DNA of 64,000 nucleotides from an uncultured Planctomycetia bacterium (GTDB lineage: Bacteria; Planctomycetota; UBA8108): the NCBI GenBank assembly GCA_964615885.1, contig CAZTRG010000281.1, forward strand, positions 144 to 64,143. The letters are read 5' to 3'. How positions within the stretch are numbered: position 1 is the first letter of the stretch; every line of letters starts with the position of its first letter. Positions 1,725 to 37,906 of this stretch are shown piece after piece. A program made the position numbers and the translations under genes. A model generated the notes under the pieces. The model ran no database searches and was not told where the DNA came from. It saw only the letters and a program-made list of their open reading frames with translations.

Positions 1725-2419
1725 GCCTTGAGGAGGGCCCGTCCCACAGCGCCATCGACATCCTCTACCAGGATGACGAGCTCCTCGTTGCCGACAAGCC
1801 CCCCGGGCTCCTGGTCCATCGCAGCCGTGAATCTTCCGACCGGGTCTTTCTCCTGCAATTGCTGCGCGACCAGGTCGGCCGCTACCTCTACCCGGTTCAC
1901 CGTCTCGACCGTGCCGCCTCCGGGCCCATCGCCTTCGCCCTGTCGAGCGAGACGGCCCGGGCCCTGCAGGCCTCGATCACCTCGCCCACCGCCCACAAGG
2001 AATACCTGGTGCTGGTGCGGGGCAGCGCCGCGGATTCAGGTGAGATTGACCGGCCACTGACCGGAACCAACGGAAAGAAAAAAGAGGCCCTCACCCACTT
2101 CGAAAAGATCGGCGAGGTCTACCGCTCCTCGCTGCTGCGGGTGCGGATCTTCAGCGGACGCCGCCACCAGATCCGCCGCCACCTCGCCCACCTCAGCCAC
2201 CAGCTCATCGGCGACACCACCTACGGCAAGGGAAAGATCAACCGCTTCCTGCGCGAGGAGCACGGCCTGCCGCGCATGTTCCTGCACTGCGCGCGGCTTG
2301 AATTCGACCATCCCGGCGGCGGAAAGCGCGTCGAGGTCCGGGCTCCGCTGGCCGAAGACCTGCGAAGCTTTCTGCTGAGCCTTCCCGGCTGCCCGCCGGA
2401 CATTCTTGAGGAGGCCTAG
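1721..2419 (+). CDS. RluA-family pseudouridine synthase (TruC-like size)
   Basis: Catalytic motif HRLDRAASG, plus GRRHQIRRHL and KEYLVLV, which are typical RluA-family blocks. Confidence 0.85.
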   Translation: MSLEEGPSHSAIDILYQDDELLVADKPPGLLVHRSRESSDRVFLLQLLRDQVGRYLYPVHRLDRAASGPIAFALSSETARALQASITSPTAHKEYLVLVRGSAADSGEIDRPLTGTNGKKKEALTHFEKIGEVYRSSLLRVRIFSGRRHQIRRHLAHLSHQLIGDTTYGKGKINRFLREEHGLPRMFLHCARLEFDHPGGGKRVEVRAPLAEDLRSFLLSLPGCPPDILEEA

Positions 2420-2799
2420 GCGTCTTCTGAGGGTGCCTCGTCTTCAGCAGGTGCAGCCTGCTCCCCCGAAGAGCTCTCTCGCTCCTTCAGGAAATTGGCA
2501 ATTAAGACCCCGATGGCTAAAACGCTGAAAGCAATGACGACCCCTGCAGGCCAGATCGCCAGGCCTTTCTTGGCGGCTACGCTGCCAAAGCGCCCAAGCA
2601 GGGCGAGACTCACGACCAGCCCCAGCACAGAACCGCCCATCGGACGAGATCCCAGGAGCCAGCAGGAAAGCAGGATTGCCGCTGCGCTGACCACGCCGGC
2701 GATGAGCGACGCGGCTGATCCCGCCACCACCATGCCCTGGATTCCACCAATAACCAGCAACAGGGCAAATACCAGTAAGACTTTTTGAGCGAGCTTCAT
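2416..2799 (-). CDS. TMEM14/UPF0136-family small membrane protein with an acidic C-terminal tail
   Basis: Four predicted TM helices. GGIQGMVVAGSAASLIAGVVS resembles the TMEM14 signature GGxxGYxKxGSxxSLxAG. ATG start with AAGGAG upstream. Confidence 0.7.
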   Translation of the reverse strand: MKLAQKVLLVFALLLVIGGIQGMVVAGSAASLIAGVVSAAAILLSCWLLGSRPMGGSVLGLVVSLALLGRFGSVAAKKGLAIWPAGVVIAFSVLAIGVLIANFLKERESSSGEQAAPAEDEAPSEDA

Positions 2800-2818
2800 G
2801 GGAGAGTCTCCTTAAGAG

Positions 2819-3127
2819 TTATTTTCCGAGCAATTTGACGAGGAGGTAGATGCAGACTATGGCGCTGAGAACCAGCAGCAGTCCCGAGGGCATGAGCTTG
2901 CGGGTCTTCGAAACACGCAGAAAGAAGACCAGTGAGAGCAGACCGCTTGTCGCCACGGCCACCCAGATCTCCTGTATAAAATAGGCCACCACCAGGACAG
3001 CAAAACTCAGAACACCTGCGACCAGGGATGGCTTCGAGCCCGACTTCTTGAAGCCGAACCAGCCGCCGAGCCCCATCAGAACGGCATAGACAAGAACAAT
3101 CATCCAGTCTGTAATTTGAATATTCAT
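2819..3127 (-). CDS. TMEM14/UPF0136-family small membrane protein
   Basis: GGWFGFKKSGSKPSLVAGVLSF and ATSGLLSLVFFLRVSKTRKLMPSG are colinear with human TMEM14C [22 protein letters not shown] ... ATSGTLAGIMGMRFYHSGKFMPAG (recalled from memory). Confidence 0.75.
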   Translation of the reverse strand: MNIQITDWMIVLVYAVLMGLGGWFGFKKSGSKPSLVAGVLSFAVLVVAYFIQEIWVAVATSGLLSLVFFLRVSKTRKLMPSGLLLVLSAIVCIYLLVKLLGK

Positions 3128-7910: not shown

Positions 7911-8231
7911 ATGAACTCCCGCACCGTCCGTGTCGCCCCGATTGATGACCTCACTGAAGGAGAACCCCGTGTCTACCAGGTCGGTGAACTCTTCATCGTC
8001 CTGTGCAGGGTCAGCGGGGAAGTTTTCGCCCTCGAGGACCGCTGCACCCACGACGACGGCCCCCTGGCCAGCGGTTGCCTGGACGGCTACCAGCTGGAAT
8101 GTCCGCGCCATGGTGCGCGTTTTGATATACGGGATGGCTCCATCTGCAGGATGCCGGCCCACGGAGATGTCCCCACCTACAGAACGATGATCGATGGCGC
8201 AGATGTTCTTGTCGAGAATCCGGCCGAATAA
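7911..8231 (+). CDS. Rieske [2Fe-2S] ferredoxin
   Basis: CTHDDGPL...(17 aa)...CPRHGARF matches the Rieske CxH...CxxH ligand pattern. It is 106 aa. Confidence 0.85.
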   Translation: MNSRTVRVAPIDDLTEGEPRVYQVGELFIVLCRVSGEVFALEDRCTHDDGPLASGCLDGYQLECPRHGARFDIRDGSICRMPAHGDVPTYRTMIDGADVLVENPAE

Positions 8232-8343
8232 TCGCAAGGCCCCATCTTGAAGGCTCTCCTGCATCATGGTAGAAGCGTCCCTTCGGCCAGGGCGCAAACC
8301 CTTGCAGACCAGGCCGCCAACAACAACATCGAGGGAACCTATC

Positions 8344-9189
8344 ATGCAGGATTACGCACACCCGGAAACCATCGTCAGCACCGACTGGGTGGCTGAAAAC
8401 AAAGATAATGCCGACGTTGTGGTCGTAGAGGTCGACGTGGATACCGGCGGCTACGACGAGGGGCATGTGCCCGGAGCACTCGGTTGGAACTGGGCGGAGC
8501 AGCTCTGTGACCAGGTTGTACGCGACATCCTGCCGAAGGAGGCAATGGAACAGCTTCTCTCCTCCTCCGGCATCAGCAACGACACCACGGTTGTCCTCTA
8601 CGGAGACAACAACAACTGGTTTGCCGCCTGGGCCTTCTGGCAGATGAAGATCTATGGTCACGAGAAGGTTATGCTCATGAACGGCGGGCGCAGCAAATGG
8701 CTCGAAGAGGGCCGCGAAATCAGCCTGGAGGCCCCGGCAAGGGAGCCGGCCGAGTATTCTGCTGCAGACGCTGACAGCTCTCTGCGCAGCTTCCTGCCCG
8801 CGGTCCAGCAAGCTGTCACCGGCGGCGAGGTCGACATGGTCGATGTTCGCAGCCCGGAAGAATACACCGGTGAGATTCTCGCCCCGCCCGGACTTCCTGA
8901 GACCTGCCAGCGGGGCGGACATGTTCCCGGGGCGCGCTCGATCCCCTGGGGACTGGCCTGCAATGAAGACGGCACCTTCAAGAGCCGGGAGGAGCTCACC
9001 GAGCTCTACTCCTCACGCGGCATCAGCGGAGAGCGGCCGGTCATCGCCTATTGCCGCATCGGTGAGCGCTCATCGCACACCTGGTTTGTTCTTTCATGCC
9101 TCCTCGGCTTCGACGGGGTCACGAACTATGACGGCAGCTGGACGGAGTACGGCAACCTCGTCGGGGTTGAGATCGAGAGGGGCGAATGA
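8344..9189 (+). CDS. two-domain rhodanese (thiosulfate sulfurtransferase, CysA/SseA-like)
   Basis: Active-site loop CRIGERSSHTWF, with tandem rhodanese domains. Start is the internal ATG (MQDYAHPETIVSTDWV). Confidence 0.85.
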   Translation: MQDYAHPETIVSTDWVAENKDNADVVVVEVDVDTGGYDEGHVPGALGWNWAEQLCDQVVRDILPKEAMEQLLSSSGISNDTTVVLYGDNNNWFAAWAFWQMKIYGHEKVMLMNGGRSKWLEEGREISLEAPAREPAEYSAADADSSLRSFLPAVQQAVTGGEVDMVDVRSPEEYTGEILAPPGLPETCQRGGHVPGARSIPWGLACNEDGTFKSREELTELYSSRGISGERPVIAYCRIGERSSHTWFVLSCLLGFDGVTNYDGSWTEYGNLVGVEIERGE

Positions 9190-9419
9190 TGACCGAATCC
9201 ATGCGCTCAGAAGACTACCAGCGCCGCAGCGAGACGCTGGCCGGTTGGCCGGTGAAGATCGCCTCCTACCGCATTGGCGAGACACACTACTGCCACATCG
9301 ACAATGTCTCCCCCGGGGCAACGATCGCCCGGGCAAAAGCCGCCTCCCTGGAGGAGGCTGAGAAAGAGGCGGTTGACAAGGCCACCGAGCGGCTGAAGAA
9401 AACCCGGAGGCACGACTGA
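9186..9419 (+). CDS. hypothetical protein (77 aa), translationally coupled to the rhodanese
   Basis: ATGA stop/start overlap with the preceding gene and high GC3. No family recognised. Confidence 0.55.
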   Translation: MMTESMRSEDYQRRSETLAGWPVKIASYRIGETHYCHIDNVSPGATIARAKAASLEEAEKEAVDKATERLKKTRRHD

Positions 9420-9448: not shown

Positions 9449-9476
9449 TTGACCTGTGCAGCGTCCTCCGTATGAT
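9449..9476 (+). promoter_or_regulatory. sigma70-like promoter candidate for the peroxiredoxin gene
   Basis: TTGACC (9449-9454), a 16-nt spacer, then TATGAT (9471-9476), about 37 nt upstream of the ATG at 9513. An imperfect inverted repeat GCTGTACAG (9436-9444) / CTGTGCAGC (9454-9462) straddles the -35 element. Confidence 0.4.
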
Positions 9477-9512
9477 ACCCACACAAATCTCTATTCAGAA
9501 TTGGGAGTAAAC

Positions 9513-10115
9513 ATGAGTGAACTGCAAGTAGGTATGTCGGTACCCGACTTCACCCTGACCACCTTTGAGCCCGAAAGTGGCGGCTTTGGAGAGCTCAGCC
9601 TCGCCAAGCAGAAAGAAGAAGGCCGCTGGACCTGTCTCTTCTTCTATCCCGCAGACTTCACCTTTGTGTGAGCAACCGAATTCGCTGCTCTGGCAGAGCA
9701 GCAGGACCGCTTCAAGAAAATGGGCTGCGACATCGTAACCGTAAGCACTGACACCCAGTTCACTCACCTGGCCTGGCAACGCGAAGAAAAAGAGCTGGGC
9801 GATGTGCGTTACTCGATGGCCGCAGACACAACCGGCTCGCTGGCGAAAACCTTCGGGGTCTACCTCGAGGCAGCAGGCCTGGCGCTGCGCGGCACCTTCC
9901 TGATCAACCCGGAAGGCACCCTCATGAACGCAGAGGTCAACTTCCTCAACATGGGCCGCAACATCGATGAGCTCATGCGGAAGTTCAAGGCCAACCTCTA
10001 CCTGGCGAAGAAAACCGATGAGGGCTGCCCCTCGAAGTGGAAAGACGACGGCGACAAGACCCTGACACCGGGGCCGGAGATGGTTGGACGGGTTCACGAG
10101 GCCCTGAACGACTAG
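9513..10115 (+). CDS. typical 2-Cys peroxiredoxin (AhpC/Prx1 type) with predicted selenocysteine (in-frame TGA at 9669-9671) at the peroxidatic position
   Basis: ORFs 9456..9671 and 9720..10115 are in the same frame. The joined sequence FFYPADFTFV-TGA-ATEFAALAEQQDRFKKMGCDIVTVSTDTQFTHLAW is colinear with AhpC FFYPADFTFVCPTE...VSTDTHFTHKAW. The resolving-Cys motif EGCPSKWK is present. GGGAG lies upstream of the ATG at 9513. Confidence 0.8.
9684..9702 (+). promoter_or_regulatory. bacterial SECIS-like hairpin
   Basis: A perfect 7-bp stem, GCUGCUC (9684-9690) / GAGCAGC (9696-9702), with a 5-nt loop UGGCA. The stem starts 12 nt after the UGA, and the loop G residues lie about 20 nt from the UGA. 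Confidence 0.6.
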
Positions 10116-10213: not shown

Positions 10214-11995
10214 TTGCCAGTGAAAGCCTCAGCCCGATTCTATTGCCACCTGACCTTGCTGCTGAATGCAGCCATCCTGTCCTGCCCACTGCTCCTGGGC
10301 GGCGCGGACCCGCTCCAGGAAAAACCCGCCCTGCGGAGGCCCGTAGCCCTGGGAATTTCCGGCAGCTGGCTGCTGTGCGGAAACCGCAACAGCGGCTCTG
10401 TCTCCCTGGTTGATCTTGAGCTGCTGGAGGTCGCCGCCGAGTACAAGACCGGGCAAAGGCTCGGGGACCTGGAGATCACCGGCTCCGGCGCCCTGGTCAC
10501 CGACCCCGCCACCGGACGCCTGCTCTCTTTGCTTATCGATGATGGAAAGCTAGAGACAACAGGCCTGCTGCCCCTTACCGGCGCCCCGCAGGACATCGCC
10601 CTGTCGCAATCAGGAACAAGCTGCTCTGTCTCCTCTCCCTGGAAGCGCCAGGTAACCCTGGTTGAGCTGGAGGAGATTGAAGGAGGGCAGACCCGCCTGG
10701 TGAAGACCGGCGAGGTCCGCCTGCCTTTCTCACCCGGGCTGCAGGTCTTCTGCCGCAACGACACCCTGCTGGTGGTCGCTGATGCCTTTGGAGGAAACCT
10801 TGCTCTTGTTGATCCACAGAAGGGAAAGCTGCTGGGAACCAGGGTGCTCGAGGCCCATGGTATTCGCGGACTGGTTGTCAGCCGTGATGGAGAGAGCCTG
10901 CACCTCTCCCACCAGCGAATTGAGAGCAGTGTGCCCACGACCAGGAACCGGGTGTTCTGGGGCCAGGTCATCAGCAACATCCTCAGGAGCATCAGCCTCG
11001 ACCACCTGCTCCAGGACGGCACCGCCCGGGATGGCAGGCCAAGGGCCGTCGCCCACTGGAGCCTGTATCCTTTCGGCACGCCGAGCAAAGCCGCCGGGGA
11101 TCCCGGCGCCCTCGCCATGGGCCAGCGCGGAACCACGCTGGTTGCTTTCGGTGGCGTTGACCGCATCGGCCTGAGACCGAAACCCAACCATGTCTTTGAA
11201 GAAATAGAGGTCGGCGACCGGCCCCTAGCCGTCGTGCTCGGCCCGCAGGAGCGCTACGGTTATGTAGCCAATTTCTTTGACGATTCCATCTCAGTCGTCG
11301 ACACCACTGAGGCCGAGGTGGTTCGCACCATCTCCCTGGGACCGGAAAGAAAGCTGAGCCGGGCTGAGGAGGGCGAAAAACTTTTTTACGATGCCAAGCT
11401 GTCACTCGATGGCTGGTACAGCTGCCACAGCTGCCATCTCGACGGGCATACTCACGGGCAGCTGAATGATAACCTCGGAGATGACACCTTCGGCACGCCC
11501 AAGCGGGTTCCAAGCCTGCTGGACACCTCCAATACCGGTCCATGGGGCTGGATCGGAAACCGGACAACCCTCTGGGAACAGGTTGAAAAATCCATCGAAA
11601 CCACCATGCGGGGGAAGAAACCCGAGGCGGCCAGCGTTGAGGCTCTCGTCGCCTACCTGGAACTTTTCGATTCCGTCCCCGCTGGAAGCCCCGGCAAAAA
11701 CAAGGCTGCGGTGGACAGGGGACGCCTGGTCTTTGAGCGCCTCAAATGTGGAAAATGCCACCGGCCGCCCAGCTACACCACTGCCGGAACCTACGATGTA
11801 GGACTGCAGGATGAAACCGGGCAGAGCTCCTACAACCCCCCTTCACTCAAGGGGCTCCAGCACCGCAGCAGGTTCCTGCATGATAACCGGGCCGAAACGC
11901 TCGCCCGCGCCCTGGAGCTCCATCGGCCGGCTTCAACGCGAGACCTCCCGGCAAAGGACCTCTCCGACCTGCTGAGCTTCCTGCTCAGCCTCTGA
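10214..11995 (+). CDS. secreted beta-propeller (YVTN/YncE-like) fused to a di-haem cytochrome c peroxidase/MauG-like domain
   Basis: Two haem motifs, CHSCH and CGKCH, sit in a CCP-like context (EEGEKLFYDAKLSLDGWYSCHSCH..., PSLKGL...FLHDN). The N-terminal roughly 380 aa are repeat-rich and beta-strand-like. The start is TTG in the ORF track and is uncertain. Confidence 0.75.
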   Translation: MPVKASARFYCHLTLLLNAAILSCPLLLGGADPLQEKPALRRPVALGISGSWLLCGNRNSGSVSLVDLELLEVAAEYKTGQRLGDLEITGSGALVTDPATGRLLSLLIDDGKLETTGLLPLTGAPQDIALSQSGTSCSVSSPWKRQVTLVELEEIEGGQTRLVKTGEVRLPFSPGLQVFCRNDTLLVVADAFGGNLALVDPQKGKLLGTRVLEAHGIRGLVVSRDGESLHLSHQRIESSVPTTRNRVFWGQVISNILRSISLDHLLQDGTARDGRPRAVAHWSLYPFGTPSKAAGDPGALAMGQRGTTLVAFGGVDRIGLRPKPNHVFEEIEVGDRPLAVVLGPQERYGYVANFFDDSISVVDTTEAEVVRTISLGPERKLSRAEEGEKLFYDAKLSLDGWYSCHSCHLDGHTHGQLNDNLGDDTFGTPKRVPSLLDTSNTGPWGWIGNRTTLWEQVEKSIETTMRGKKPEAASVEALVAYLELFDSVPAGSPGKNKAAVDRGRLVFERLKCGKCHRPPSYTTAGTYDVGLQDETGQSSYNPPSLKGLQHRSRFLHDNRAETLARALELHRPASTRDLPAKDLSDLLSFLLSL

Positions 11996-15324: not shown

Positions 15325-17376
15325 ATGCCCCGTCTTGTTAAAACTGTCTGCTCTCATGATTGCCCGGATGCCTGCAGCGTGCTGGTCACTGTCGATGACA
15401 GCCAGGACCTTCCCGGCGGACGGGCTGTTCAATTCCGGGGCGATCCCGAGCACCCCCTGACCAGGGGCTTTCTCTGCGGCAAGGTCAACACCTACGAGCA
15501 GGTCGTCCACTCGAGCGAGCGCCTGCTCCATCCGCTCCGCAGATCCGGCGCCAAGGGGGAGGGCCGCTTTGAACGCATCAGCTGGCAGGAGGCTCTCTCT
15601 TCGATCGCTGAAAACATCCAGGCCGTGAGTGCCGAGTGTGGCGGTGAAGCCCTGCTGCAATACACCTACGCGGGCACCATGGGCCTCGTTAACCGCAACT
15701 GCCCCAACGCTCTCTTCAACCGGCTCGGCGCCACCCAGCTGCGCCAGAACATCTGCTATTACGGAGCCGACGAGGGCTACCGGGTCACTGTCGGCAGCGG
15801 CTATTGCGTAGATCCCGAGGACACCCGGCACAGCGACCTCATTATCGTCTGGGGCGCAAACGTGGTCACCACCCAGGTCCACCTGGTGCCTTTCCTCGAC
15901 GAGGCGCGCAAAGCGGGCGCCCCTATGATCGTCATCGATCCCTACCGCAACCGGACGGCCAGAACCGCGGACCAGTGGGTCGGCATCCGGCCCGGCACCG
16001 ACGCAGCCCTCGCCCTGGCCCTGATGCATATCCTGGAGCGGGACGGCAAGCTGGACCGGGACTTCATCGAGCGCCGCACCATCGGCTTCGAGCGCCTGAG
16101 CCGGGAGGTCCTGCCACGCTTTGAGCCGGCCGTGGCGGCCGGGATCACGGGAGTGCCCCTTGAAGAGATCGAGAAACTTGCAGCGAAGATCGCCGGCGCC
16201 AGGGCCCCCTTGTTCAAGGTGGGGATCGGTATTGGCAGGAGCACCCGCGGCGGCGCTGCGGTCCGTGCCATCTGCGCCCTGGGAGGATTTACCGGTTCCT
16301 ACGAAGTCCTCGGCGGAGGTGTCCAGTTCGACACCGGCTCTGAATTCCAGCTCGAGCTGGACTCCATCAACCGCCCTGACTGGCTTGAGGGAGACCCCCG
16401 CTGGCTCAACATGACCGACATCGGACCCGCCCTTTGCGACTGGCAGGACCCACCGATCCGGTTTCTCTACGTCCACGGCACCAATCCTGCCGCCACCGCC
16501 CCCCTGCAGGCAAAGGTCCATACAGGGCTTGCCCGTGAAGATCTCTTCACCGTCGTCCACGAGCGCTTCCTCACCGACACCGCCCGCTACGCCGACATCG
16601 TCCTGCCCGCTCCGACCTTTGCGGAATACCCCGATCTCTACAAGGCCTATGGACACCTCTACCTTCAATACGCCGAACAGGCCATCGAGCCGGTGGGGGA
16701 ATCGCGCTGTAACCTCGAGGTCGTGCAGGGGCTGGCAAAAGAGCTTGGCTACGATGATCCCTGGTTCCGCAAGAATACACGGGAGCACGCACGCTCCCTG
16801 CTCCAGGGCTCCCACGCCAACATCGAGGGCCTCGACATCGAAGAGATCCTCTCGGGAAAAACCACCCGCCTGAATATTCCGAAGCAGGCTCCCGGCTTTG
16901 CCGAGCGCTTTGCTACACCCTCGGGAAAACTGGAGTTCTATTCGGCAGAGCTCGAGGAGCAGGGGCTCGCGGCGCTGGTGGATTTTTCCGCAACAGAAGA
17001 TCCTGAAGACCCGGAGCTCCACCCCTTTCGCCTGATCACTCCCCCCGCCCATTCTTTCCTGAACTCTTCCTTCGTCAATATCGAGAAGGCAAGAAGACGT
17101 GAGGGCGGCGGCCCCATCCTGATGATCCACCCGGAGGATGCCGGAGAGATCGCCAGCGGTGACCTGGTTGAGATCTCGAACCAGCAGGGTTCCGTTCGTC
17201 TCTCAGCACTGGTGACAACCGACACCAGGAAGGGTACCTTGGTCGCCGAGGGAACCTGGTGGCCCTCCCACAGCCTGGAGGGAGGCGGCATCAACCGGCT
17301 GACCTCCAACCGGCTGACCGATCTGGGCGGCGGATCCACCTTCCATGACAACCAGGTAGCGCTGAAGAAAATCTGA
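15325..17376 (+). CDS. molybdopterin (bis-MGD) oxidoreductase, MopB superfamily, with an N-terminal [4Fe-4S] Cys cluster
   Basis: N-terminal CSHDCPDAC...C cluster, MopB-like core blocks and a C-terminal MGD-binding barrel (ILMIHPEDA...GDLVEISN). The substrate cannot be inferred. Confidence 0.85.
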   Translation: MPRLVKTVCSHDCPDACSVLVTVDDSQDLPGGRAVQFRGDPEHPLTRGFLCGKVNTYEQVVHSSERLLHPLRRSGAKGEGRFERISWQEALSSIAENIQAVSAECGGEALLQYTYAGTMGLVNRNCPNALFNRLGATQLRQNICYYGADEGYRVTVGSGYCVDPEDTRHSDLIIVWGANVVTTQVHLVPFLDEARKAGAPMIVIDPYRNRTARTADQWVGIRPGTDAALALALMHILERDGKLDRDFIERRTIGFERLSREVLPRFEPAVAAGITGVPLEEIEKLAAKIAGARAPLFKVGIGIGRSTRGGAAVRAICALGGFTGSYEVLGGGVQFDTGSEFQLELDSINRPDWLEGDPRWLNMTDIGPALCDWQDPPIRFLYVHGTNPAATAPLQAKVHTGLAREDLFTVVHERFLTDTARYADIVLPAPTFAEYPDLYKAYGHLYLQYAEQAIEPVGESRCNLEVVQGLAKELGYDDPWFRKNTREHARSLLQGSHANIEGLDIEEILSGKTTRLNIPKQAPGFAERFATPSGKLEFYSAELEEQGLAALVDFSATEDPEDPELHPFRLITPPAHSFLNSSFVNIEKARRREGGGPILMIHPEDAGEIASGDLVEISNQQGSVRLSALVTTDTRKGTLVAEGTWWPSHSLEGGGINRLTSNRLTDLGGGSTFHDNQVALKKI

Positions 17377-37330: not shown

Positions 37331-37906
37331 ATGGTAAAAACCGCTTCAACCATGGTCGAGCTGGGCACCCCGGCTCCCGGCTTCAGCCTGCCGGCCACCG
37401 ATGGCTCCACCGTGAGCCTTTCGGACCTCGAAGGCAGTCCCGTGCTGGTTATGTTTATCTGCAACCACTGCCCCTTCGTCCTGCACCTGCGAGAGCATCT
37501 CGCAGAAACCAGCAAGGGCTACCAGGAACGCGGCGTCAAGGTCATCGGCATCAGCTCTAACGATGTCTCCACCCACCCGGATGACAGCTTTGAGAAAATG
37601 GTCGAGGAGGTCGCCAACACCGGCTACACCTTCCCCTACCTCTACGACGAGAGCCAGGAGGTCGCGCAGAGCTACCGCGCCGCCTGTACCCCTGACTTCT
37701 TCCTCTACGACAGCTCCCACAAGCTGGTCTACCGCGGGCAATACGATGACAGCCGGCCGGACAACGGCACTGCCACCGGCGCCGATCTCTCAGCCGCCAT
37801 CGATGCGCTGCTGGCAGGTGAGGCACCGCTGGAGAACCAGAAGAACAGCATCGGCTGTAACATCAAGTGGAAGGCCGGCAACGAGCCCGACTATTTCAAC
37901 CCCTGA
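37331..37906 (+). CDS. thioredoxin-fold (AhpC/TSA-redoxin-like) protein
   Basis: APGFSLPATDGSTVSLSDLEGSPVLVMFICNHCPFV...GVKVIGISSND. Start is the internal ATG at 37331 with AGGAA upstream. Confidence 0.8.
   Translation: MVKTASTMVELGTPAPGFSLPATDGSTVSLSDLEGSPVLVMFICNHCPFVLHLREHLAETSKGYQERGVKVIGISSNDVSTHPDDSFEKMVEEVANTGYTFPYLYDESQEVAQSYRAACTPDFFLYDSSHKLVYRGQYDDSRPDNGTATGADLSAAIDALLAGEAPLENQKNSIGCNIKWKAGNEPDYFNP

Follow-up and report, generated by a model that had tools for sequence, protein, structure and literature searches.

A predicted selenocysteine-containing AhpC-type peroxiredoxin and its SECIS hairpin in a marine planctomycete

The question raised by this locus is whether a peroxiredoxin gene that carries an in-frame TGA at the codon for its catalytic cysteine encodes a selenoprotein, or whether the TGA marks a damaged, split or wrongly sequenced gene. 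The window, by which we mean the whole 64,000-nucleotide stretch of DNA that was analysed, is an ordinary piece of a marine planctomycete chromosome. In the public gene calls the peroxiredoxin is split into products of 52 and 131 amino acids, a two-fragment outcome that the initial annotation of the sequence had predicted. As set out below, the interval 9513–10115 is very probably a genuine selenocysteine (Sec)-peroxiredoxin gene with a functional selenocysteine insertion sequence (SECIS), a reading that draws on comparison of the sequence with those of its relatives.

On the forward strand, a single frame extends from ATG 9513 to TAG 10113–10115 and is broken only by the TGA at 9669–9671, with no other frame disruptions in between. 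The ORFs 9456–9671 and 9720–10115 share this frame and are separated by the TGA and 16 sense codons, exactly where the initial annotation had placed them. Read through, 9513–10115 constitutes a complete coding sequence for a predicted Sec-containing AhpC-type 2-Cys peroxiredoxin of 200 residues, with U53 and a resolving Cys 172, as assigned from Pfam and NCBIfam matches, alignment with AhpC and dN/dS. A Shine-Dalgarno-like GGGAG can be read at 9503–9507 (+), 5 nt before the ATG, and a sigma-70-like promoter candidate (TTGACC, a 16-nt spacer and TATGAT) lies at 9449–9476 (+); the latter is a consensus match only, with 10 of 12 positions matching and one site found versus 0.2 expected in shuffled sequences. 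Around the TGA the joined product reads FFYPADFTFV, then U, then ATEFAALAEQQDRF. The Pfam family AhpC-TSA (PF00578) covers residues 6–137 with an E-value of 1.6e-32 and 112.5 bits against a cut-off of 26, and the read-through product also matches Pfam Redoxin.

Both the read-through translation and the AhpC alignment place the active-site motif P46-x3-T50-x2-U53 (PADFTFVU) at 9648–9671 (+), and this is the ‘TxxU’ form of the PxxxTxxC motif as these are defined in PMC13188914 and PMC1088965. The predicted UGA selenocysteine codon at 9669–9671 (+), assigned to the peroxidatic position from the comparative data, aligns with the peroxidatic Cys 47 of E. coli AhpC. The codon for the resolving Cys 172 is found at 10026–10028 (+) within EGCPSKWK and aligns with Cys 165 of E. 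coli AhpC; this residue is kept in all 81 aligned sequences, and protein lengths are uniform. Third-position GC content is 0.79 downstream of the TGA versus 0.65 upstream. In comparisons with the five closest relatives (dS 0.66–1.3), dN/dS is 0.02–0.08 upstream and 0.05–0.08 downstream of the TGA, which points to strong purifying selection on the protein downstream of the TGA. The exact coincidence of the TGA with the peroxidatic Cys, the intact resolving-Cys block and the high third-position GC content after the TGA had all been proposed from the window alone, and each is upheld here.

The closest solved structures are those of E. coli and Salmonella AhpC (PDB 4o5r, 1yep and 5b8a), at 158 bits. 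The alignment with the E. coli protein is gapless and runs column for column through FFYPADFTFVCPTE and EVCPAKWK, the latter corresponding to EGCPSKWK in the window protein. Common to both are FFYPADFTFV-C/U-xTE, E-x-CP-x-KWK, an AhpC-like C-terminal tail and the typical 2-Cys mechanism, for which the C-terminal resolving Cys of the Prx1/AhpC subfamily is present as Cys 172, whereas AhpC has Cys within CPTE and the window protein is predicted to have Sec within UATE. The AhpC equivalog model of NCBIfam (TIGR03137) scored 183.9 bits, below its cut-off of 272, and the assignment was rejected. To our knowledge, PrxU of Eubacterium acidaminophilum is the only biochemically characterised Sec-peroxiredoxin. 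PrxU, like the predicted window protein, carries Sec as its peroxidatic residue, and it is thioredoxin-dependent according to NCBIfam. Scored with U replaced by C, the window protein covers positions 35–228 of 233 in the PrxU model (NCBIfam NF040737) with an E-value of 2.9e-50, and thus lacks the first ∼34 positions. At 171.1 bits it falls below the curated cut-off of 270, and PrxU was retained as a relative only. The predicted product belongs to a distinct AhpC-like “VUATEF” subclade that rises above the cut-off of no NCBIfam equivalog model.

The state of the peroxidatic codon was compared across relatives in two sets of loci. A genome scan limited to one genome per species returned 80 loci with relatives at 68–93% identity, and all 80 carry TGA at this codon, or 81 of 81 genome-derived sequences when the window gene is counted. 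They span at least eight phyla, and comprise Planctomycetota, Acidobacteriota (Sulfomarinibacteraceae, Holophagae and Thermoanaerobaculia), Myxococcota/Myxococcales/Deltaproteobacteria, Desulfuromonadales/Geobacteraceae, Krumholzibacteriia, Nitrospirae/Thermodesulfovibrionia, Rokubacteria and a gammaproteobacterium of the Pseudohongiellaceae. A further 80 loci came from a scan of metagenomes that started from a Cys homologue, with TGA in 68, TGC in eight and TGT in four, and 114 of the 120 best database proteins have Cys at the peroxidatic column. The tally over all sets is 149 TGA loci versus 14 TGC/TGT loci and 114 Cys proteins. Cys/Sec alternation at this column, which had been put forward as a check when the gene was first described, is therefore present, and such alternation at one column is the pattern that defines a selenoprotein family. 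A few sequences depart from it. Three JGI proteins (P0025, P0037 and P0096) carry Trp in place of Sec, presumably because TGA was translated under code 4. In locus L084 (3001–3597; JGI Ga0190284_1000357) the Sec TGA is replaced by CGA (Arg) and the hairpin described below is fully intact, and in L087 a CAG within the hairpin has become TAG; the two are either putative inactive variants or single-base assembly errors.

The hairpin lies 12 nt past the TGA, at 9684–9702 (+). The initial annotation had described it as a 7-bp stem, GCUGCUC with GAGCAGC, closed by a UGGCA loop; this was found as described, and one additional U-A pair extends the stem to 8 bp and reduces the loop to GGC. The predicted SECIS thus has a 5′ arm at 9684–9691 (GCUGCUCU), an apical loop at 9692–9694 (GGC) and a 3′ arm at 9695–9702 (AGAGCAGC), as defined by RNAalifold, covariation and synonymous entropy. 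The 12-nt spacer between UGA and hairpin (9672–9683, +) encodes A-T-E-F, and its synonymous sites vary freely, with third-position conservation of 0.46–0.60. The apical loop, which includes a G, opens 20 nt past the UGA. These two properties fit published features of bacterial SECIS elements, in which the loop is located 16–37 nt from the UGA (PMC10778597) and a G is present in a small apical loop (PMC1088965). Folded alone, the hairpin region is no better than dinucleotide shuffles (z = −0.79 to +0.63), and for this reason the significance of the hairpin rests on the comparative data. An Rfam scan of the window at gathering thresholds returned zero RNA families, so there is no curated model for the SECIS at 9684–9702. 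The paradigm for bacterial selenocysteine insertion sequences is that of E. coli fdhF. The two elements have unrelated sequences, but both are hairpins embedded in the reading frame directly 3′ of the UGA, with a G-containing apical loop; in the one predicted here, the stem is short and perfect, at 8 bp around a 3-nt GGC loop (or 7 bp and UGGCA), and no bulge is evident.

The comparative data come in the first place from synonymous sites. When the 81 sequences are aligned by codon, the six hairpin codons at 9684–9701 are nearly fixed (GCT in 77/77, GCT in 81/81, CTG in 81/81, GCA in 74/74, GAG in 80/81 and CAG in 80/80), whereas the flanking codons use two to six synonymous alternatives with entropies of 0.6–2.0 bits. 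Only seven of 160 degenerate columns have entropies below 0.15 bits, against a median of 0.99 bits; six of these seven are the hairpin codons, and clustering of this kind in six consecutive codons has a permutation p < 1e-5. Among 138 distinct TGA-bearing sequences, the third positions at +18, +21, +24, +27, +30 and +33 are 94–100% conserved, compared to 46–68% for neighboring third positions. In 12 Cys homologues the same hairpin positions are only 33–92% conserved, though many of these genes encode AALAEQ as well, so that the constraint on the nucleotides goes with the UGA rather than with the protein.

Base pairing follows the same pattern. With 64 diverse sequences, RNAalifold returned the 8-bp hairpin as the only consensus structure, and 98.4% of the cells in the pairing table are standard pairs, a share that drops to 15–64% if the 3′ partners are slid. 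Compensatory double changes affect two of the pairs, with C-G replacing U-A in three sequences and A-U replacing C-G in a single sequence, and several G-C/G-U and U-A/U-G exchanges are also found within the pairs. The covariation score was reached by none of 500 shuffles; since the stem is nearly invariant, this evidence is contributed by a few variant lineages. Among the 12 Cys homologues, just 4–8 keep the inner pairs. Synonymous conservation confined to the TGA-bearing genes, the compensatory changes and the RNAalifold consensus together bear out the SECIS-like character first proposed for the hairpin. Over at least eight phyla the element is nearly identical in nucleotide sequence, and the invariant 18-nt motif GCUGCUCUGGCAGAGCAG following UGA-N12 offers a simple and highly specific tag for this Sec-peroxiredoxin clade.

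These observations also bear on the other ways in which the TGA could be explained. In a decaying pseudogene, a nonsense change from TGC or TGT to TGA would have inactivated an ordinary AhpC-type peroxiredoxin; the two fragments reported by gene callers are in line with this, as is the isolated damage in relatives such as L087, with TAG in the hairpin, and L084, with CGA for TGA. Yet the same TGA is present at 149 loci in many phyla, the frame has no more breaks, the resolving Cys is invariant with dN/dS of 0.05–0.08 downstream, and the synonymous sites of the hairpin are constrained, unlike those of a dead gene. We consider decay extremely improbable, in agreement with the initial annotation, which had argued against it. 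An error in sequencing or assembly would need to affect only one base, as TGA is one base away from the TGC or TGT of a normal gene. However, the identical 131-residue downstream product occurs on 19 independent marine-metagenome contigs from several studies, with the 52-residue upstream fragment called separately in all of them, and TGA is found in 149 independent loci, which leaves a negligible chance of such an error. A naturally split enzyme, in which translation stops at 9671 and restarts at ATG 9720 to give polypeptides of 52 and 131 residues that assemble, draws some support from this in-frame ATG and from the Met found at its column in 74% of homologues. No Shine-Dalgarno sequence precedes 9720, though, and a start codon is missing from that column in 26% of homologues; moreover, the 16 codons from TGA to ATG are conserved as protein (ATEFAALAEQQDRFKK), and the catalytic residue would be lost altogether, making this arrangement very improbable.

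The UGA could also have been reassigned to Trp or Gly (code 4 or 25), or a near-cognate tRNA could read through it with no selenium involved. The three JGI proteins have W at the site, some pipelines translate in that way, and the window shows no Sec machinery. Against this, about 40 of the 59 window genes stop at TGA, and do so at ends that complete Pfam domains (e.g. RmlC, EF-P and PanD); that TGA is the usual stop in the window argues against a reassigned genetic code. The window was scanned twice for in-frame TGA codons with coding signal on both sides; these scans gave only the peroxiredoxin gene, artefacts of adjacent genes and antisense shadows, and, adjacent genes aside, only the peroxiredoxin TGA combines two-sided coding signal with a redox motif. 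Trp or Gly in place of the catalytic Cys would kill a peroxiredoxin, and the hairpin is conserved specifically in UGA-bearing genes, as predicted by SelB-dependent recoding. Reassignment or selenium-free read-through is accordingly judged very unlikely, and insertion of Sec at the UGA is the reading that we prefer.

If Sec is inserted, the established bacterial mechanism suggests that SelB carrying Sec-tRNA(Sec) would bind the hairpin 12 nt downstream of UGA 9669 as the ribosome reaches the UGA, and that Sec would be put in at this codon instead of termination. The chemistry can be predicted from the homologous AhpC/Prx1 and PrxU enzymes: H2O2 or an organic hydroperoxide would be attacked by the U53 selenolate, leaving a selenenic acid, which Cys 172 of the partner subunit would resolve to a selenenylsulfide, and a thiol reductase would then regenerate the enzyme. 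There is no AhpF partner adjacent to the gene and, according to Pfam, no pyridine-nucleotide disulfide reductase or AhpF-like flavoprotein among the window genes; because no AhpF-like gene is present in the window, a thioredoxin-type protein is the most likely reductant. Pfam annotation of the ∼59 genes in the 64-kb window revealed no selA, selB or selD, and ARAGORN detected no tRNA of any kind in the window and no tRNA-Sec in any of the ∼168 fetched loci; selA, selB and selD are likewise missing next to the gene in those loci. The Sec-decoding capacity of the organism is therefore a prediction. The window contains no further selenoprotein candidate.

The peroxiredoxin gene is preceded by genes for a Rieske protein (7911–8231) and a rhodanese (8266–9189) and by a 77-residue ORF (9186–9419), and is followed by a gene for a β-propeller/di-haem cytochrome c peroxidase (CCP)-like protein (10214–11995). 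This order is syntenic with the MAGs UBA1662, UBA8108 and UBA1146, at 65–92% amino-acid identity. The synteny is limited to close planctomycete MAGs (L001, L002, L004 and L005) and is not family-wide, so that no dedicated partner gene can be deduced from it. The 77-residue ORF (+) overlaps the rhodanese stop in an ATGA, has no Pfam match and is 78–81% identical to its counterparts in the planctomycete MAG loci L002, L004 and L005. Two deltaproteobacterial loci (L045 and L053) also have a rhodanese gene upstream of their Sec-peroxiredoxin. The CCP-like gene (+) lies directly downstream of the peroxiredoxin and is syntenic in the close relatives; its 593-residue product has a weak match to a YNCE-like β-propeller and a di-haem CCP_MauG region, and may be a second peroxide-handling enzyme of the locus. 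In other phyla, the neighbors of the Sec-peroxiredoxin include a Fur/PerR-like regulator in 19 loci, desulfoferrodoxin in 16 and rubrerythrin in 10 (L070, L098, L125 and some 40 further loci), all typical of the oxidative-stress clusters of anaerobes. Together with the adjacent CCP-like gene, these neighbors lend support to a role in peroxide defence.

Several other genes in the window were noted in the course of this analysis. A second AhpC/TSA-Redoxin protein of 184 residues is encoded at 37352–37906 (+); it has a thioredoxin-like CNHCP (CxxC) motif and resembles a Cys version of the ‘Prx-like’ thiol:disulfide oxidoreductases, a group that has UxxC selenoprotein members in other bacteria. 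The gene at 15379–17376 (+) encodes a molybdopterin oxidoreductase with Fe4S4, Molybdopterin and Molydop_binding domains and contains no in-frame TGA; the selenoprotein FdhA belongs to the same superfamily. At 2416–3103 (−) there are two tandem small membrane proteins matching TMEM14 (PF03647), a family better known from eukaryotes.

The distribution of Sec and Cys among the relatives gives some indication of how the family evolved. Cys forms are interleaved with Sec forms, and a rough neighbor-joining tree, which is distance-based, derived from a short protein and built without a model of horizontal transfer, needs at least 20 Sec/Cys switches. The Cys homologues nearest to the Sec clade (L081:820–1491, L083:42–659, L097 and L098) retain a recognisable and partly compensated relic of the hairpin; that of L081, GCC GCT CTG GCA GAG CGG, is fully paired via a compensatory C-G. 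In more distant Cys forms the synonymous sites are randomised. The relic hairpins in the near Cys forms tentatively suggest repeated and recent reversion from Sec to Cys, starting from a single Sec ancestor. The wider history, in which a Sec and SECIS cassette would have originated once within the AhpC-like clade, spread horizontally and then reverted to Cys many times independently, is a possible one to which we give somewhat less than an even chance. If true, the many Sec-to-Cys reversions would run in the direction opposite to a count made in 2006, of five Cys-to-Sec and zero Sec-to-Cys events among peroxiredoxins (PMC1794560).

At the sequence level, the predicted gene has every feature of the bacterial Sec-peroxiredoxin family known from the Zhang and Gladyshev surveys (‘Prx’, PF00578, TxxU). 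As in the family, the product has the AhpC/TSA fold and would place Sec at the peroxidatic residue of PxxxTxxC, Cys homologues abound, and a SECIS with G in its loop lies just past the UGA. Nothing essential is different; the window copy comes from a marine planctomycete lineage, with the MAGs UBA1662, UBA8108 and UBA1146 as its nearest relatives, and is without selenoprotein annotation in the public gene calls. Sec-peroxiredoxins are among the most abundant bacterial selenoprotein families, with 43 genes in the Sargasso Sea (PMC1088965), 253 in GOS (PMC2398784) and 91 in 78 sequenced bacteria (PMC5029168). The family has been known since PrxU was described by Sohling et al. in 2001, as cited in a 2026 review that includes it (PMC13188914). 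The gene is thus a new member of a long-known family, as had been recognised when it was first annotated, and leaves the current understanding of selenoproteins unchanged.

The value of the finding lies mainly in annotation, but also in ecology, and it holds little surprise. MAG and metagenome catalogues list the window gene and hundreds of orthologues as pairs of truncated “AhpC-TSA” fragments, and some catalogue copies carry Trp or Arg at the catalytic site. Owing to such splitting and mistranslation, the active-site residue is missing from protein databases and from the functional inference built on them. For the organism itself, the gene implies that this marine planctomycete lineage would decode UGA as Sec, would need selenium and would use it in peroxide defence.
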